From the IMG/VR virus record IMGVR_UViG_3300042461_000028, positions 1 through 48,101 of that record: a stretch of DNA of 48,101 nucleotides. One strand, written 5' to 3'. A model generated the notes under the pieces. That model was not told the DNA's origin. It made no database searches and was given only the letters and a program-made list of their open reading frames with translations. The DNA comes from a virus. Made by a program: the position numbers and the translations under genes. This document shows, in pieces, positions 2,964 to 41,178 of the stretch (positions are counted from its first letter, which is position 1; each line of letters opens with the position of its first letter).

Positions 2964-4340
2964 ATGAGCAAGAAGGGCTTAGTGCCAGCAAACAAAAAGC
3001 TGGGCAAGGCCCTCACTCGGGCCCTGGTTGAATACGAGGCCGGCATGAAGCAAACCAGCGATGGATTGGTGAATGTCGTGTCGGGCCTGGGCACCGAGAA
3101 GGCCAAGCGCTCACACAACCAGTTCGAATACGGGTTCCTCAACAACTTCCAGCAGCTGGACGCTGCATATCAGACCAGTTGGCTTGCCCGGGCAATCGTT
3201 GACTACCCCGCCGAGGACATGACCCGCGAGTGGCGCACCATCAAGTGCGACGACGCGGACGTGATTAGGGCCGAGGAAGATCGGTTGAACCTGCCTGCCA
3301 TGGTCAGTGAGGCAACCAGCTGGGCGCGTCTGTACGGTGGCGCCGGCATCCTGATGCTGACCAATCAGGACCTGACCAAGCCGCTCAGGCCGGAGAAGAT
3401 CAAGAAGGGCGACCTATACCGCCTGCTGGTCATAGATCGCTTCGACATGACCGCGATGGACCTGAACCAGACCAACATCCTGGCCGCAAACTACTTGCAG
3501 CCGGAGTTCTACACCATCTCTGCCGGTGCCCAGCAGATCCATTGGACGCACTTCGCCAGGTTCGCCGGAGCCAAGCTGCCACGCAGGCAGCGCGCTCAGA
3601 CGCAGGGCTGGGGTGACTCCGAGCTGCGCAAGTGCCTCGACGACGTGATGGACATCGTAGCCAGCAAGGACGGCATCGCCGAGCTGATGCAGGAAGCGAA
3701 CGTCGACATCATCAAGCGAGAAGGTCTCTCTGATGAGCTGGCCAGCGATCAGGACGACGCCATCACGGCGCGTTACGCCCTGTTCAGCATGATGAAGTCC
3801 TCGATCAACCTGGCGCTGCTGGATGGTGAAGAGACGTACGACCGCAAGACCCTGGACCTGTCCGGGGTTGCGCCGGTGCTCGACCTGCTCATGACCTGGA
3901 TAAGCGGCGCAGCGGACATCCCGCTCACTCGTCTGTTCGGCACATCTGCCAAGGGCCTCAACGCCACCGGTGAAGGGGACATGGACAACTACTTCAACTC
4001 GCTGTCATCGAAGCGGTTGACGCAGATTGACCCGGGCATGCGCCAACTTGACGAAGTGTTGGTCCGCTCAGCCACTGGCACATGGAAAGACGACTTCAAT
4101 TACGTCTGGAACCCATTCCAGCAGCCTGACGCCGTGGAAATCGCCACGGCCAACAAGGCCAAGGCCGAGACCGACATTCTGTACAAGGACGCCGGCATCG
4201 TCTTGCCAAGCCAGATCATGCGCCGTTTACAGGCCGAGGAGCTCTACCAGTTCGACGACGAGAAGATTGCCGCGCTGGAGGAGGATGAAGACGTGACCAT
4301 GTTCAACGACCCGCCAGGCAAAGGTGACGAGGACGAATGA
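2964..4340 (+). CDS. portal protein (DUF1073/HI1409-type)
   Basis: 458 aa immediately after terL. Sequence (…AAYQTSWLARAIVDYPAEDMTREW…) matches my recollection of DUF1073 portals. Acidic C-terminus. Confidence 0.8.
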   Translation: MSKKGLVPANKKLGKALTRALVEYEAGMKQTSDGLVNVVSGLGTEKAKRSHNQFEYGFLNNFQQLDAAYQTSWLARAIVDYPAEDMTREWRTIKCDDADVIRAEEDRLNLPAMVSEATSWARLYGGAGILMLTNQDLTKPLRPEKIKKGDLYRLLVIDRFDMTAMDLNQTNILAANYLQPEFYTISAGAQQIHWTHFARFAGAKLPRRQRAQTQGWGDSELRKCLDDVMDIVASKDGIAELMQEANVDIIKREGLSDELASDQDDAITARYALFSMMKSSINLALLDGEETYDRKTLDLSGVAPVLDLLMTWISGAADIPLTRLFGTSAKGLNATGEGDMDNYFNSLSSKRLTQIDPGMRQLDEVLVRSATGTWKDDFNYVWNPFQQPDAVEIATANKAKAETDILYKDAGIVLPSQIMRRLQAEELYQFDDEKIAALEEDEDVTMFNDPPGKGDEDE

Positions 4341-4343
4341 CCC

Positions 4344-5159
4344 ATGGACATGATCGGCATCCAGTACAACGCCAAGCTGCAGAGACTGGTGAGGCAGGTC
4401 AAGGCGTCGATCAGCAAGGAGATTATGCCGCTGGTTCGCCAGTTGGCGTCGGAGTACACGCAGGACGCGGTGGTCACGACTGATGCCTGGTCTGACCTGA
4501 TCCTTAATGCCATATCCACATTGGTGAGCCGCTGGTCGTCACCGACGGTCCAGGCCGCCGGTGCACGCATCGCCGGAGAGTTCGTCCAGTCATCGCTCAA
4601 GAAGTCCGAGCGCGACCTGAAGAAGTCAGCTGGGATCGACGTGTACAGCGGCAACGCCGCCATGCAGGACTACCTAAAGGCATCGGCCCAGCAGAACGCC
4701 CAGCTGATCAAGTCCATCCCGGCCAAGTACCTGGAAGAGGTGCAGACGCTGGTTATGGCGAACATGCGCTCCGGCATGCGGCCCAGCTTCATCGAGAAGG
4801 CGTTGCAAGATCAGTTCGGCGTGACCCAGCGCCGGGCCAAGATGATCGCCCGCGACCAGACATCGAAGATCCAGGGCGAGCTGGCCGAGAAGCAGCAGAA
4901 GAGCGCCGGCTTCGAGTACTTCCAGTGGATTGACTCCGACGACAGCCGCGTCCGGCACCGCCACCACGAAATCGCAAACAAGGTCACCGCCTACGGCAAA
5001 GGGATCTACCGCTGGGACGATCTGCCGCTTAGCGCTGACGGCAAGCCGATCAAGCCCGGCTCCGACTATCAGTGCCGATGCATCGCGCGCCCAGTGAGTG
5101 CCCGCGAGGTCCAGGCCAACCAAGACGCAGGCCGTACAGCGCCGGGCGTCCTCAAGTAA
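4344..5159 (+). CDS. head morphogenesis protein, Mu F / SPP1 gp7-like
   Basis: 271 aa. C-terminal RAKMIARDQTSK…DSRVRHRHHE…YQCRCIARPV is the Phage_Mu_F signature region. Follows the portal. Confidence 0.8.
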   Translation: MDMIGIQYNAKLQRLVRQVKASISKEIMPLVRQLASEYTQDAVVTTDAWSDLILNAISTLVSRWSSPTVQAAGARIAGEFVQSSLKKSERDLKKSAGIDVYSGNAAMQDYLKASAQQNAQLIKSIPAKYLEEVQTLVMANMRSGMRPSFIEKALQDQFGVTQRRAKMIARDQTSKIQGELAEKQQKSAGFEYFQWIDSDDSRVRHRHHEIANKVTAYGKGIYRWDDLPLSADGKPIKPGSDYQCRCIARPVSAREVQANQDAGRTAPGVLK

Positions 5160-22705: not shown

Positions 22706-23131
22706 ATGAACGCAACAGATAAGGACCGCGACATCCTGGCCCGCACCCTGTGGGGCGAGGCCCGCGGCGAAGGCTTGGCCGGGCAGATCGCCGTAGCCCA
22801 CACCATCCGCAACCGTGTGGAGGATGGCAAGGCCAAATCCTGGTGGGGTGAGGGCTACGCCGGCGTGTGCCTGAAGCCCTACCAGTTCAGTTGCTGGAAC
22901 AAGAACGACCCGAACTATCCCTACCTGAGCGGCGCGAAGCCGATCCCGCCGAAGCAGTTCGCCCAAGCGCAGCGGGCGGCCGACCTGGTGATCTCCGGCG
23001 CCGAGCCTGATATCACGAAGGGCGCGACCCACTACTACGCCACGACCATGCCAAAGGCTCCGGCCTGGGCGGCCAAGGCCACGCAGACACTCCGCCTGGG
23101 TAACCACATCTTCTTCAAGGACGTGCCATGA
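22706..23131 (+). CDS. endolysin, SleB/Hydrolase_2-type cell-wall hydrolase
   Basis: ATG 22706 with GGAGA upstream. DILARTLWGEARGEGLAGQIAVAHTIRNRV…KPYQFSCWN is the Hydrolase_2 signature. No signal or SAR sequence. Confidence 0.85.
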   Translation: MNATDKDRDILARTLWGEARGEGLAGQIAVAHTIRNRVEDGKAKSWWGEGYAGVCLKPYQFSCWNKNDPNYPYLSGAKPIPPKQFAQAQRAADLVISGAEPDITKGATHYYATTMPKAPAWAAKATQTLRLGNHIFFKDVP

Positions 23132-23502
23132 ATCCCGCCGCGGTCAAGGTGCTGGTGGCGGCCGGCATTGCTCTGCTCCTGGTTATCGCGGGAGCAGGGA
23201 TTGGCGCATGGCTGGCGGCAGGGCACTACCGGCCACTGCTGGATGCGTCGAACAACGACCTGGCCCAGGCCACGCTTGCACGTGACAACCTGATTACCCT
23301 AACCGACGAGCAGGGACGCAAGCTGGGCGAGCTGGTCCAGGCTGGCGAGCTGCGGGAGCGGGCGGCGGCGTTGGCCCTGGAGAAAGCACGGGCAGAGGCC
23401 CAGCCTGACTATGCGGCAGCCAATCGCCTCCTGCGGGAGCGAACCGGCGGCAATCAATGTGTGGCGGCCGAGTCCATTATTGATCAGGAGTTGGGCTTAT
23501 GA
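23128..23502 (+). CDS. Rz: i-spanin (Rz-like)
   Basis: 124 aa, ATGA-coupled to the endolysin. N-terminal TM (VKVLVAAGIALLLVIAGAGIGAWLAAG) then a coiled-coil periplasmic domain. Confidence 0.8.
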   Translation: MNPAAVKVLVAAGIALLLVIAGAGIGAWLAAGHYRPLLDASNNDLAQATLARDNLITLTDEQGRKLGELVQAGELRERAAALALEKARAEAQPDYAAANRLLRERTGGNQCVAAESIIDQELGL

Positions 23503-23756
23503 AGGCGTTGCTGCTGGTCGTTGTGCTGGTTCTTGCCGGGTGTGCTGGTAGGACGCCTGAGGTGCGAACGGTTCGGGTAGAGATTCCCGTGCAGGTCCCA
23601 TGCAAAACGGAGGAAGTGGCGGTGCCGGCCTGGGCTGCGGCCGGGCTCAAGAAGTCTGACCCCCTTGAAGTGAAAGCCCGGGCATTGCTGGCGGAGCGCC
23701 GGCAGCGGATAGGCTACGAGAAGCAGTTGGTGGCGGCGGTCGGCGCATGCCGCTGA
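23499..23756 (+). CDS. Rz1: o-spanin lipoprotein (Rz1-like, separate-gene architecture)
   Basis: 85 aa, ATGA-coupled. Lipobox MKALLLVVVLVLAGC. Pro/Val-rich mature part with Cys residues. Confidence 0.8.
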   Translation: MKALLLVVVLVLAGCAGRTPEVRTVRVEIPVQVPCKTEEVAVPAWAAAGLKKSDPLEVKARALLAERRQRIGYEKQLVAAVGACR

Positions 23757-23757
23757 C

Positions 23758-24438
23758 TCACGCAACAGGCTTGATCAGCTCGGGGCCTTGATTGCGCACG
23801 TTGCCAACGGCCTTGTCCACCTTGAACCACTCGAAGACCTCGGCCGGCTCGCCCTGCTGCAGGACCATTTGTTCGGCACGCTCCTTTGGAGTGGCCGGGT
23901 CCAGCCACTCCCGAGCGAGTTCGGCATTCAGCACAACGGGGCGCCGGTCGTGGATGTCGATCATGCCGCCCTGGCTGTCGGCGGTGATGATGACGAATCC
24001 GTCGTGCTCGCCTGGCTCACGGTCACCGGTGGGGAACTGGCCGATAGCCGCGCAGAGGATCGGGGCCTGGTCCCGCCGGCGGATCAGGTACGGCTGCTTT
24101 TTCGGCCCACCCTCATCGACCCACTCAAACCAGTTGTTTATAGGCGTGATGGCGCGGTTCGGCCAGATCGACCGGTAGAAGGGGCCGTGGGCGACTTTCT
24201 CCACCCTGGCATTGATTGGCGCTGCCCTGTCTTTGGCCCAGGCCGGGCGCCAGCCCCAGCGCACCATGTCGGCATGCAGCGCGTCGCCTTCCTGGTGAAA
24301 CAGGGCGAGCTGACTCGATGGCGCGCCGTTGTACTTCTCCAGGGGTAGGTCACCGGCAGAGTTGACCAGGGCATTGGGCATGCTCAGCGCCGCCACGAAG
24401 TCGTGGATGCCGGTGTACTGGGAGAGTCGTCCGCACAT
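23758..24438 (-). CDS. SRAP (SOS-response-associated peptidase, YedK/HMCES-like) protein
   Basis: 226 aa starting MCGR (catalytic Cys2), with …NARVEKV…PINNWFEW…HDRRPVVL… typical of SRAP domains. Confidence 0.85.
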   Translation of the reverse strand: MCGRLSQYTGIHDFVAALSMPNALVNSAGDLPLEKYNGAPSSQLALFHQEGDALHADMVRWGWRPAWAKDRAAPINARVEKVAHGPFYRSIWPNRAITPINNWFEWVDEGGPKKQPYLIRRRDQAPILCAAIGQFPTGDREPGEHDGFVIITADSQGGMIDIHDRRPVVLNAELAREWLDPATPKERAEQMVLQQGEPAEVFEWFKVDKAVGNVRNQGPELIKPVA

Positions 24439-24451
24439 TTGGTGCTCCCTT

Positions 24452-24823
24452 TCAGACTCTGTTGGGAGTGGGTGGGGCGAGCTTGCCTCCCATGAATTCG
24501 TTCAACTGCCTGTAGTACTCAGAAATCAGCTGATCTTTTGAGGCAAGCAGGTAGTTCGAGTTCATTTGTAAGGAGACAAACTCTCGGCCCTTGCTAGATA
24601 GATCGGCCTTGACCTGCTTGAGTTCAGCTCGAAGCTTTGTACATTCCTTGGCCTCATTGGCATGCATCTCGACCAAGCCGAAAATATCCTGGCGCGCCTT
24701 GCGAAGCTGAGTCGTCAGCTCCTGCACCTCGTTCTCCAGCATCAGGCAAGAGTGTTTGTACATCTCCAGTGGAGTAGGACAGCCCAGCCAGTCGCTGGTG
24801 TCTTCGATTTCTAATGGGTCCAC
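24452..24823 (-). CDS. coiled-coil protein, unknown function (123 aa)
   Basis: GTG start with GAGG 8 nt upstream. Long heptad region (ENEVQELTTQLRKARQDIF…KLRAELKQVKADLSSK). Low GC. 13 nt upstream of the SRAP gene on the same strand. Confidence 0.6.
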   Translation of the reverse strand: MDPLEIEDTSDWLGCPTPLEMYKHSCLMLENEVQELTTQLRKARQDIFGLVEMHANEAKECTKLRAELKQVKADLSSKGREFVSLQMNSNYLLASKDQLISEYYRQLNEFMGGKLAPPTPNRV

Positions 24824-24841
24824 GGGTAACGCCTCAGCTTG

Positions 24842-24861
24842 TACTGTTTGGATGTACAGTA
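24842..24861 (-). promoter_or_regulatory. LexA (SOS) box
   Basis: tACTGTttggatgtACAGTa: CTGT-N8-ACAG palindrome matching TACTG-N10-CAGTA. Lies 19-38 nt upstream of the 24823 start. Confidence 0.7.
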
Positions 24862-25070
24862 ATCGAGGCGCGACAATTCGGGCGAGAGGGAGGCGACGAG
24901 CTGTAGTGGTTTGGGTTGTGAGCGGTCGGCAGAACGCCGGAGGAGGGGGAGTACTGTAGGAATATCCAACGCTAAGTTATTGATTCTTATAGGGGGATCT
25001 GGCGGTTTTGGGAAGGTCTTAAATCGGGTGTTTTGTTTTTAAAATCAAAAGGTTACAGTGGAGTCTCGGT

Positions 25071-25119
25071 CACCTTGACATGGTGGGGGTCGTTGGTTCG
25101 AGTCCAATCGCGCCTACCA
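25071..25119 (+). other. attP core: 3' portion of a tRNA-Val(GAC) gene (anticodon arm to CCA)
   Basis: caccTTGACATggtg anticodon arm (GAC), ggggtc variable, gttggTTCGAGTccaat T-arm, cgcgcct acceptor strand, ACCA. No matching 5' acceptor strand or D-arm upstream. Confidence 0.75.
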
Positions 25120-25150
25120 AACAAAATCCGCTCTGCTGGGCGGTCTAGAA

Positions 25151-25178
25151 GGGCTCACCGAAAGGTGGGCCCTTTTTG
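25151..25178 (+). terminator. rho-independent terminator after the tRNA fragment
   Basis: gggctcacc GAAA ggtgggccc (9 bp incl. one G-U, GAAA loop) followed by ttttt. Confidence 0.75.
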
Positions 25179-25227: not shown

Positions 25228-26364
25228 TCAGAACGCCAATTCGGCGCACACCTCGACGTACTCAATCGTCTTATTCCCATGCCCTTCCTGATAGTGCTTG
25301 GTCATCTTCTCGTCTGCATGCCCCATCAAGGCCTGGATGTATTCCATTGGGAAATTTTGCTGCTCATAGAGCCAGGCACCCAAAGCGCGAATCTCGTGGA
25401 AAGTGGGGCGCTCTCCGGCCGGGACATGATCGTAGGCGTGGGCTGCGTCCCGAGCCTTGCTGAACTCCTTGGTCAAATAATCCGGCGTCACTGACGTCCA
25501 ATGGTCTTTGGCGTCGATTTGCTCCCTTCGCCTGGCCTTAGGCTTGTAGTGAATCAGGTACGGCGACGCGATCGGCGAGCGGAGGCACTCACCAACCACC
25601 TCGCGCAACGCGGCTCCCATGGTGATTTTCAGGTGCACCGGGTTGTCGTATCCCTGGGTTTTTCCCGGCGAGACGGTCAGCGTATTTTGATCCATGTCGG
25701 CTGCCGACTTCAGCCAGGTCACGATGTCTTCCCTTCGCTGAAGGCTGGTCAGGGCAAGGCGTATTGCTCGCTTCAGCCAGGGCGGCGTGGTGACGGCATC
25801 GATAATGAGCTTCAATCCCTCAACCGTGTGTCGCTGGCGCTTCTTCTCCGCCTCCTTCTTCACCAGGGTCAACTCGGCGTTGTTTCGTTCAGCCAGGCCT
25901 TTGGCCACGGCGAAGGCGAAAATCTGCACCCATAGCCCGCGGTGCTTGGTGTAGGCGTTGTTGCTGAACTGGTCCAAGTACTCCGCCATGGCGAGCACGT
26001 CCATTTGCCCGATCAGGCGGTCGCCAAGATCCTGTCGATACCGCTCAAGCTTGAATTTGATTTCTTCCAGGGTGCGTGCCGCGTAGCCTTTGTCCACGAC
26101 CCATTCATCGTGGAAGCGCTGAAGAAGGTTGCTGACCGTGGGCAGGCGATCGCCTGTTAGCAGCGTGAGTAGGGCGCCATCGTCGACGACCAGCGCGGCC
26201 AGTTTGAGATTGGCGGCCCGCGCCAGCTTGATTGCCTCCTCCAAGGGGCGGTTGATGCTGGTCATCAAGCCCGTAACCGGGTTGCGGTACCGCCAATATT
26301 TTCCGTTGGGGTAGAGGTTGGGCGGCAGCTTTCTGTTCTTGAGCGTGCGCGGTCGAGCAGCCAT
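25228..26364 (-). CDS. int: tyrosine integrase (lambda Int-like, with N-terminal arm-binding domain)
   Basis: 378 aa. N-terminus …LPPNLYPNGKYWRYRNPVTG. C-terminal catalytic region …HEIRALGAWL…LMGHADEKMTKHYQ (H-x-x-R, H, Y). Confidence 0.9.
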   Translation of the reverse strand: MAARPRTLKNRKLPPNLYPNGKYWRYRNPVTGLMTSINRPLEEAIKLARAANLKLAALVVDDGALLTLLTGDRLPTVSNLLQRFHDEWVVDKGYAARTLEEIKFKLERYRQDLGDRLIGQMDVLAMAEYLDQFSNNAYTKHRGLWVQIFAFAVAKGLAERNNAELTLVKKEAEKKRQRHTVEGLKLIIDAVTTPPWLKRAIRLALTSLQRREDIVTWLKSAADMDQNTLTVSPGKTQGYDNPVHLKITMGAALREVVGECLRSPIASPYLIHYKPKARRREQIDAKDHWTSVTPDYLTKEFSKARDAAHAYDHVPAGERPTFHEIRALGAWLYEQQNFPMEYIQALMGHADEKMTKHYQEGHGNKTIEYVEVCAELAF

Positions 26365-27316: not shown

Positions 27317-27775
27317 TTAGGTTTTTTTGGTGGAATTGCGCTTTCTGGCTGCAATTACCAATGACTTCGATGTCTTGGCCACGCCGCCGACAACGTCTTC
27401 AGGAAGGATGGCGGTCATGCAGTGAGGGCAGAGGGGTGCCATCTTCGTACTACGCCAAGCGTCGTCCATCACCTTCGCGGCTCGGCTTCGGATCTGAAAT
27501 GATTCAGCTTCTGCCAGCTCGCGGCGCCGAGTATTCAACTTGCTCATGCCGGCGCTGAAAACCTCCACTATTCCAACGAAGGCATCAAAAGCTTCAACTT
27601 CGGCTTCGCAGTCTTGACACCAGACGCGCCGCTCCCCTTGGTCATAAACCAACTGTTTGTGTCGACAGGAGGATGCAGGGCGCCGCGTTAATCCTCTGGC
27701 TACGCGTAGGTCTTCGATCTGAACGACCTTCACGCCGTAGATGTAATCCTGCGGTTCGATGGGGGCATCACTCAT
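27317..27775 (-). CDS. hypothetical protein with two CxxC pairs (zinc-ribbon-like)
   Basis: 152 aa; CQDCEAE… and CPHCMTA…; basic C-terminus. Confidence 0.55.
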   Translation of the reverse strand: MSDAPIEPQDYIYGVKVVQIEDLRVARGLTRRPASSCRHKQLVYDQGERRVWCQDCEAEVEAFDAFVGIVEVFSAGMSKLNTRRRELAEAESFQIRSRAAKVMDDAWRSTKMAPLCPHCMTAILPEDVVGGVAKTSKSLVIAARKRNSTKKT

Positions 27776-40073: not shown

Positions 40074-40865
40074 TTACAGCATCCCGCCGCGCCACACGAC
40101 GCGACCGATGATGCGAACCTCGTTTATCTCGCCATCACGCAGAATCTCATCGCCATAGCGCGCCTTGTCGGGGTTGTCGCTTCGGATGATCCAGCCGTCG
40201 ATGTCTGACTTCACCAGGCGCTTCACGATCGTGCCCTTATTGGCGCTCTGCATTGCGAAGATCTGGCCGTCTTTTGGCTCGATCTTCGACTCATCAACCA
40301 ACAGCACGTCACCGTCATTGATGGACGGCTCCATGCTGTTTCCGTTGGCATAAATGACGTCCAGGTGCCGCTGGTTGAGGTTGTTGGCTCGCAGCCAGGA
40401 TGACTTGAACGCCATGACCCCGCGAATCTCGACGTGAGGGTTGTCGTCGCCATCTCCGGTTGATCCGCGCGCGGTGAGCTGCAATACACCTGTGTAGCCT
40501 GGCTCGTTCTGGAGGTCAAAGCTTCGCGGCGGGATGCGCTCATCGATCTGCGCAGTTGCCGAATTCGACTTTAGCCCAGCCGCTGAGGCCATCCGCTCAA
40601 TGTCAGACTCAATCCGCTTACTGAAAGTCCCGATCGGAATTCCAAGCATCCCTGCCATTGAAACAGCAAGTTTCTGAGTCAGCGGCCTATGGCCGTTGAG
40701 GTGGCTACCCAGCGTCCCCTGGCTCATTCCGACAGCGTGCGCAATCTCGTCCTGGGTCAGGCGTTTGTCCTTTGGTCGGGAGGCGTTGTAGTCCGCAATG
40801 GCCTTTTTCAAAGCTGCGCACTCTTCTCGCTCCCAGTCATGCAATGGGCGGCGTTCTTTAGTCAT
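40074..40865 (-). CDS. cI: CI-type repressor: N-terminal HTH (XRE) + C-terminal S24 LexA-like autopeptidase
   Basis: ATG 40865 (263 aa). LTQDEIAHAVGMSQGTLGSHLNG HTH; linker with AAG (Ala-Gly); C-terminal …GNSMEP…IVKRL… (Ser/Lys dyad). Divergent from cro across the operators. Confidence 0.9.
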   Translation of the reverse strand: MTKERRPLHDWEREECAALKKAIADYNASRPKDKRLTQDEIAHAVGMSQGTLGSHLNGHRPLTQKLAVSMAGMLGIPIGTFSKRIESDIERMASAAGLKSNSATAQIDERIPPRSFDLQNEPGYTGVLQLTARGSTGDGDDNPHVEIRGVMAFKSSWLRANNLNQRHLDVIYANGNSMEPSINDGDVLLVDESKIEPKDGQIFAMQSANKGTIVKRLVKSDIDGWIIRSDNPDKARYGDEILRDGEINEVRIIGRVVWRGGML

Positions 40866-40875
40866 TTCGCAAGAA

Positions 40876-40941
40876 TATTCCCAAGGGAAATAGTTAACCA
40901 TCTCCATTGGAGTTGCAAAGTATCTCCATGGGAGATAATCT
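40876..40941 (+). promoter_or_regulatory. OR operators (x3) and PR promoter
   Basis: 17-bp sites tattcccaagggaaata (40876-92), catctccattggagttg (40899-915) and the perfect palindrome tatctccatgggagata (40921-37). PR has TTGCAA (40913-18), a 17-nt spacer and TAATCT (40936-41). Confidence 0.75.
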
Positions 40942-40971
40942 GCGCGCATGAATGCCAATGGAGATATGGCC

Positions 40972-41178
40972 ATGAGCCGAATCACTCTCAATCAGTTCGC
41001 TACCAGCAAAGGGCAGACCAAGGCAGCTCAGCTCCTCGGCATGACCCAGGGCGCTTTGAATAAAGCCCTGCGAGTAGGTCGTGACATCTACGTTACCGAA
41101 TCGCCTGACGGAACCTTCCAGGCTGAAGAGGTGCGGCCGTTCCCGAGCCAGACACCGCTTAAAAAATCAGCTGCATAA
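40972..41178 (+). CDS. cro: Cro-type HTH regulator
   Basis: ATG 40972 with GGAG 8 nt upstream (ORF extends to 40948). …GQTKAAQLLGMTQGALNKALRVGRDIYV… HTH. First gene after PR. Confidence 0.8.
   Translation: MSRITLNQFATSKGQTKAAQLLGMTQGALNKALRVGRDIYVTESPDGTFQAEEVRPFPSQTPLKKSAA

Follow-up and report, generated by a model that had tools for sequence, protein, structure and literature searches.

LexA-gated accessory operons of prophages are classical, as in p95-tum of coliphage 186 and dinI-gfoA/gfhA of the Salmonella Gifsy prophages, and SOS-linked division inhibitors and DinI homologues are likewise carried by prophages of enterobacteria. Here we describe a locus of a temperate Pseudomonas phage in which a predicted LexA operator is followed by a gene for a coiled-coil protein of 123 amino acids (aa) and a gene for a protein of the SRAP family. 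Aravind et al. 2013 (PMC3765255) drew attention to SRAP genes in temperate phages (SPbeta yoqW, proteobacterial prophages) and inferred a link between SRAP and the SOS response from gene neighbourhood (UmuCD, ImuAB-DnaE2, DinB), not from phage operators. Our locus is located on the IMG/VR virus record IMGVR_UViG_3300042461_000028, positions 1 to 48,101. This stretch, referred to as the window throughout, represents a complete phage genome of 48.1 kb, and the host group of the phage is the fluorescens-group Pseudomonas. We consider it likely that the two genes, situated at the att-proximal end of the phage, form an accessory (moron) operon repressed by LexA, combining an SRAP with an independent, SOS-timed effector.

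In its bare form, CTGT-N8-ACAG, the gammaproteobacterial LexA pattern is matched twice in the window, and two or more matches also occurred in 14 of 100 shuffled sequences. Since shuffled sequences match it as well, the bare pattern is weak evidence when taken alone, and a matrix of host SOS boxes was therefore built. It comprises eight chromosomal Pseudomonas SOS boxes from genomes that hold relatives of the 123-aa gene: two sites before lexA, one each before recA, a umuD-type S24 gene and a radical-SAM gene, and three others. An earlier note on this DNA, made from the sequence alone, had described a near-perfect SOS box at 24842..24861 and proposed a scan with a Pseudomonas LexA matrix. The palindrome is present as described and is the best site of the window, scoring 23.4 bits, while the training sites range from 16.6 to 28.0 bits. 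The second-best site reaches 13.7 bits, and the maximum over 30 shuffles is 18.7 bits. The box TACTGTACATCCAAACAGTA is the sole strong LexA-type site in the 48-kb phage. The other match to CTGT-N8-ACAG, at 27653, was dismissed as a chance occurrence, as it lies inside a coding region and scores 13.7 bits. On the genomic scale, TACTGT-N8-ACAGTA with at most one mismatch is found at just 12-15 sites per whole Pseudomonas genome of 6-8 Mb.

The box is conserved together with the gene that follows it. Among 34 genomic loci of the 123-aa family, 33 show a CTG-N10-CAG box approximately 36 nucleotides (nt) before the start codon. An independent genus-wide draw, composed of 201 evenly drawn Pseudomonas species genomes, revealed the box in 29 of the 30 best loci. 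After removal of duplicates, 60 out of 62 distinct loci retain it; TACTGT and CAG never vary, and the end of the box usually lies 10-20 nt from the start codon. The same layout, adjoining int, occurs in the isolated phages PseuP_222 (OP626800) and VW-6S (MF975720). The flanks further upstream vary, with integrase arm repeats of six or more kinds and with differing att sites; the box thus moves together with the gene, independently of the integration module. As far as sequence comparison can tell, this footprint, kept across diverged loci, is the strongest evidence for a functional operator.

It is highly improbable that the palindrome is not a LexA site but arose by chance or serves a phage regulator as its operator. 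Such a reading could draw on the frequency of the bare pattern in the window and its shuffles, and on the lack of a recognisable sigma-70 promoter overlapping the palindrome. It is opposed by the high score on a matrix deduced from chromosomal SOS boxes only, by the same type of box before umuD, recA and lexA in the host genomes, and by the invariance of the arms among prophages that differ in integrases, att sites and repressors. The conserved region that abuts the box upstream probably holds the promoter; hand-assigned -35 and -10 hexamers were dropped because they were inconsistent between loci.

Some further LexA-type sequences were encountered alongside these loci. A half-site-like TACTGTAGGAATATCCAACG at 24952-24971 (10.1 bits) lies in the P arm, some 90 nt upstream of the box itself, within arm sequence that VW-6S and several prophages have in common; a LexA site is improbable here. 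One divergent, 103-aa member of the family (L037, G002:C1:6453438-6453748) stands behind a perfect box, TACTGTATATGCGAACAGTA, and is oriented divergently from a histone-deacetylase-family gene, a context which may lie outside a prophage. A Dam-type adenine methyltransferase gene adjoins the cassette in L013, L015, L027 (~3940-4770) and L063 (3243-4004); in the first three of these, the methyltransferase and coiled-coil genes point away from each other, and a second LexA-type box, TACTGTATATATAAACAGGT, belongs to the methyltransferase gene.

Judging from its Shine-Dalgarno (SD) sequence, its 344 homologues in a large protein collection and a dN/dS of about 0.31 over the N-terminal 53 codons (638 pairs), the 123-aa open reading frame (ORF) is a real gene. 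Those homologues whose source is named all derive from Pseudomonas, and none carries a Pfam domain. A profile search among 1.8 billion cluster representatives yielded 173 clusters at 50% identity, all of them small proteins. The N-terminal ~55 residues are strongly conserved and acidic (IEDTxDWLGxPTPLE...LENEVQEL...LRKAR..IFGLVEMH), such that a head, composed of an acidic stretch, the motif (W/C)LGxPTPLE and a helix, precedes a C-terminal half that forms a variable coiled-coil tail. One continuous helix is predicted by AlphaFold2 for residues 18-110 (mean pLDDT 87.6), and the model suggests an oligomeric (dimer-like) coiled coil carrying a small N-terminal head. Searches against Pfam, PHROG, NCBIfam and PADLOC gave nothing significant, only sub-threshold coiled-coil noise, and the matches of a PDB profile search (colicin coiled coils, troponin, keratin) all had E-values of 0.05 or more. 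Foldseek returned 0 hits against PDB; with a model that is a single long helix, such a fold comparison is uninformative.

Within the genus-wide draw, 73 of the 201 species genomes match the family at E <= 1e-5, with 1-3 copies each; the weakest of these matches are unrelated coiled-coil ORFs of 450-500 aa. This patchy spread fits prophage cargo, and the neighbours of family members include antisense Rz and endolysin genes as well as Mu-type baseplate genes. A core chromosomal SOS gene was considered and rejected, since the family is confined to these 73 genomes, some of them with weak coiled-coil matches, and always stands in prophage-like contexts. In GenBank, homologues are named 'minor tail protein' (PseuP_222; L063, 2142-2480) or, in VW-6S (L065, 2489-2848), 'defense against restriction protein A (DarA)'. 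We found no support for either name, and both annotations look wrong.

By its sequence, the distal gene is an intact SRAP. PF02586 is matched over the full model (positions 1-214 of 214, E = 1e-44), E. coli YedK is matched over residues 1-225 (E = 2e-48), and the protein also belongs to phrog_1599. The YedK alignment retains Cys2 and the counterparts of Asn75, Glu105 and His160, within the motifs INARVE, WFEW and DIHDRRP. Neither this gene nor the 123-aa gene was matched by PADLOC.

The packing of both genes into one operon, as proposed in the earlier note, is supported by our data, while a suggestion that the 123-aa protein is a cofactor of the SRAP did not survive a check of co-occurrence. 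An intact SRAP gene lies directly behind the 123-aa family gene in 22 of the 62 loci, mostly with a spacer of 2-30 nt. At the remaining loci, the 123-aa gene abuts the antisense Rz/endolysin genes, or other cargo comes next. Mapped onto a maximum-likelihood tree of the family, the presence of SRAP requires 17 changes, compared to a mean of 18.3 with shuffled labels, and thus does not cluster. In several loci the SRAP is frameshifted or truncated and the first gene intact. Their unequal GC contents, 52% and 65%, likewise speak for separate histories of the two genes. With SRAP present at 22 of 62 loci and scattered at random, the coiled-coil gene is an independent SOS-gated gene, and the cofactor role was ruled out.

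The reverse perspective, starting from SRAP, reveals several routes to the same type of control. Of the 30 closest SRAP genes in the genus sample, 26 are preceded on their own strand by a LexA-type box. Ten of the boxed genes are reached via the coiled-coil gene and seven or eight via a 237-aa leader that is unrelated to it (phrog_19595, a distant relative of F116 p69); in a third architecture, about eight have the box directly 80 nt before SRAP. The pair was consequently rejected as a fixed unit, as SRAP is equally often boxed directly or behind an unrelated leader.

Furthermore, what lies between the SOS-boxed gene, or the SRAP where one follows, and the antisense lysis genes varies among the relatives, marking this slot as a cargo site. 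Candidate defence genes found there encode DUF4238-Pers, a PIN_12/PDC-S34 protein, a mad2-like protein and an HNH protein, and the PADLOC defence models matched are DUF4238-Pers, PDC-S34 and mad2. Cargo positions are 6438-7472 in L019, 5530-6696 in L028, 5439-6305 in L034 and 6061-6924 in L032. Taken at the level of sequence, these loci appear as modular LexA-gated cassettes at prophage ends, with SRAP as a frequent distal passenger and the coiled-coil gene as one of several leaders that would also be a self-sufficient SOS gene.

A short element of ~27 nt is met repeatedly at the heads of various prophage-end cassettes in Pseudomonas. It reads CCC(T)CC-N2-3-CGGCGT(C/T)CTGCCGACCG, occurs in up to 3-4 tandem copies, and was seen in the window (24923-24949, minus strand), in L020, L031, L034, L009, L024 and L030, and in others. 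In every case, arm repeats specific to the integrase, of six or more different kinds, come before it, and the SOS-box/coiled-coil unit or another small-gene unit (..CTGCTACGCTGA..CACGGAGGA..ATG) comes after it. It may belong to a promoter or mark a boundary at which modules are exchanged.

The coordinates of all features are collected in Table 1. Read along the minus strand, the order is integrase, attP region, box, SD sequence, 123-aa ORF, spacer and 226-aa ORF, with a gap of 18 nt between box and GTG and a spacer of 13 nt that contains AGGGAG. Operon and spanin genes converge tail to tail, the SRAP stop being located 1 nt from the stop of the o-spanin (23756), which is the last gene of an endolysin/i-spanin/o-spanin lysis cassette. 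A terminator scan found no terminator-like structure between these converging stops; the next plus-strand terminator is a strong hairpin at 25147..25176, past attP. The attP core matches the last 49 nt of the host tRNA-Val(GAC) genes and the 11 nt downstream of them with 100% identity. Rfam gave sub-threshold matches only, all within the attP/terminator stretch. These findings are in good agreement with the earlier note, which had placed the box just upstream of a GTG start, an SRAP beginning with MCGR 13 nt behind the 123-aa gene, its stop 1 nt from that of Rz1 with no terminator between, and the whole beside attP; all of its coordinates proved correct. The low GC content of the 123-aa gene, also noticed there, is real but modest, with ~52% compared to 65% in the SRAP gene and 58% in the genome.

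Table 1. Features of the operon and its surroundings in the window.
Feature	Position	Strand	Remarks
LexA (SOS) operator, predicted	24842..24861	-	TACTGTACATCCAAACAGTA on the minus strand; plus-strand reading TACTGTTTGGATGTACAGTA; palindromic CTGT-N8-ACAG
Conserved upstream region abutting the box	24862..24905	-	tcgtcgccc..ctcgCc..cgCCTCgAt; consensus of 60 loci
~27-nt element CCCCCTCCTCCGGCGTTCTGCCGACCG	24923..24949	-	recurs at heads of different Pseudomonas prophage-end cassettes
123-aa gene	24452..24823	-	GTG start at 24823; SD GAGG at 24835..24832
SRAP / YedK-type protein, 226 aa	23758..24438	-	MCGR start; PF02586, YedK match, phrog_1599
Two-component spanin	23128..23756	+	i-spanin 23128..23502; lipoprotein o-spanin (Rz1-type) 23499..23756
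attP core	25071..25130	+	tRNA-Val(GAC) 3' 49 nt + 11 nt
Lambda-type tyrosine integrase	25228..26364	-	PF09003 + PF00589

The geometry of attP places the integrated operon at the prophage end opposite int, transcribed inward. In a lysogen, it would thus be located just inside the prophage end with the duplicated tRNA-Val fragment, head-on against the lysis genes.

To which kind of target the 123-aa protein might bind depends in part on the immunity of the phages that carry it. The phage of the window encodes a CI-type repressor (40074-40991, minus strand) with a helix-turn-helix (HTH) and an S24 domain (PF00717, E = 1e-15), including the Ser (GNSMEP) / Lys (VKRL) dyad. The proposal of the earlier note, that host-LexA-wired cargo is carried in addition to such a repressor, is thereby supported at the sequence level. 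The listed CI ORF is probably over-extended at its 5' end, the start being likely at MTKERR. No canonical Ala-Gly is present at the expected distance, where TARGSTG is found, compared to AAMGGG in VW-6S and LAAGSG in PseuP_222. The repressors of the latter two phages are also of the S24 type, one of them with a classical AAG|SG site. Between the three repressors, similarity is weak in the S24 part and absent in the DNA-binding part, and the N-terminal head of the 123-aa protein is still conserved. A separate protein of the Rha/ANT type is encoded by the phage as well.

A LexA-controlled antirepressor of the type of Tum (coliphage 186) or GfoA/GfhA (Gifsy) would, after LexA cleavage, inactivate the phage's own CI or the repressors of co-resident prophages or tailocins and so cause induction. 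For the 123-aa protein we regard this as improbable. The protein does resemble those of 186 and Gifsy in being small, LexA-gated and encoded far from the immunity region; a coiled coil would suit the binding of a dimeric repressor, and self-cleavage of CI is less certain without Ala-Gly at the expected place. However, CI has a full S24 domain with the Ser/Lys dyad, and the S24 domain is shared by VW-6S and PseuP_222. The HTH domains of these two repressors are unlike that of the window CI, yet the N-terminal domain of the 123-aa protein is conserved. Moreover, no similarity to a catalogued antirepressor, DinI or ANT family was found in Pfam, PHROG and NCBIfam, and the phage has its separate Rha/ANT-type protein.

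A conserved head in phages of varied immunities points to a conserved target instead, and a host protein involved in cell division or in the response to damage is the most plausible candidate. A more specific version of this reading takes the 123-aa protein for an SOS-timed host modulator, either a division inhibitor (analogous to SulA, Kil or DicB) or a modulator of RecA/LexA (analogous to DinI, RecX or gp7 of GIL01), and may be held tentatively. The invariant LexA box and the retention of the N-terminal domain across different immunities are consistent with it, as are the predicted cytoplasmic, all-helical nature of the protein with its likely oligomerising tail and the SOS-linked division inhibitors and DinI homologues of enterobacterial prophages. 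On the other hand, no sequence or fold similarity to such proteins was detected by Pfam, PDB profile search or Foldseek, and any choice among FtsZ, RecA, LexA or another target is a guess.

We propose the following course of events for the LexA-repressed operon. In the lysogen, host LexA would occupy the predicted operator adjoining the start of the first gene and keep the operon off. Upon DNA damage, active RecA filaments would trigger self-cleavage of LexA and thereby an early expression of both genes, such that their induction would be part of the host SOS response and independent of the phage CI. By homology, the SRAP may form a covalent thiazolidine crosslink via Cys2 to abasic sites in single-stranded DNA and shield them during replication of damaged host or phage DNA. 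The 123-aa product would act as an SOS-timed effector, and its partner would most likely be a conserved protein, of the host or otherwise, rather than the phage-specific repressor. As there is no terminator between operon and lysis cassette, overlapping convergent transcripts are probable: the late transcript probably reaches the attP terminator after crossing the whole operon in antisense, and that of the operon probably extends antisense into the spanin genes. Such an overlap would restrict expression of the operon to the time before late transcription. The convergent, overlapping arrangement of operon and lysis genes recurs in relatives. A role of SRAP as 'damage sensor or lysis switch', as proposed in PMC3765255, is backed by nothing in the present analysis.

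Several points weigh against this interpretation. A scan for sigma-70 consensus sequences found no promoter at or around the box; LexA may block transcription here by occlusion or as a roadblock. The SRAP gene of P. stutzeri phage pAN is without a LexA box and that of the Gifsy-2 remnant shows a half-site only, for which reason a LexA box before every phage SRAP was rejected as a rule. Finally, the suggestion of a conserved host target comes from one single line of sequence comparison, the conservation of the N-terminal domain in three phages whose repressors differ.

Real and conserved as the arrangement is, it represents a kind of phage cargo that was already known and no new type of system. 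What had been observed in the earlier note was confirmed; of its interpretation, the LexA-wired cargo stood, and the cofactor role and the fixed pairing of both genes did not. In the literature, we found no paper on the 123-aa family or on LexA operators or LexA control of phage SRAPs. New are an uncharacterised family of proteins for which a LexA box is all but obligatory, the figures for the independence of the coiled-coil family from SRAP, and three architectures that place a phage SRAP clade under predicted LexA control. The SOS regulon of fluorescens-group Pseudomonas extends regularly into prophage cargo: by the boxes predicted, a LexA box is hardly ever missing from the 123-aa family, and LexA gating appears to be nearly universal in the phage SRAP clade. 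This supports the view that phage SRAPs act during damage-induced replication, and it makes the 123-aa gene a clean, testable candidate for a new SOS effector. A bolder reading, which we regard as rather doubtful, holds that the 123-aa family is a new class of SOS-timed phage effectors, whose acidic N-terminal domain docks on a conserved host protein involved in the damage response or in division, for example RecA, LexA or FtsZ, and that Pseudomonas prophage ends carry exchangeable 'LexA box plus gene' cassettes headed by the ~27-nt element. If true, such cassettes would amount to a modular system of SOS-wired cargo.

Compared to the operons of 186 and Gifsy, the locus shares a host LexA box that gates a small operon away from the immunity region. 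Those phages differ in their non-cleavable repressors and in an antirepressor product, whereas the repressor of the window has an S24 domain. No similarity to the 186 and Gifsy proteins appeared in the family-library search, a comparison in which the sequences were not directly aligned, and the conserved N-terminal domain of the 123-aa protein argues against a repressor-specific target. With E. coli YedK, B. subtilis SPbeta YoqW and human HMCES, the full-length SRAP of the window shares its family (PF02586); it differs from them in being phage-borne and distal in a cassette behind a conserved predicted LexA operator. The p69-p68-p67 genes of P. aeruginosa F116 and related cassettes are closer in layout. 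Like the window operon, they adjoin int/attP and are convergent with lysis or structural genes, and they have a LexA-type box before the first gene and SRAP as the last, the order in F116 being box, p69, 30-aa membrane peptide, SRAP. In contrast, their leader is an unrelated, globular, Cys-rich protein of 171 or 237 aa, with or without the 30-aa membrane peptide. PseuP_222 and VW-6S carry a homologue of the 123-aa gene itself behind a CTGT-N8-ACAG box, adjoining int and convergent with lysis genes, and in PseuP_222 this homologue is also followed by SRAP.

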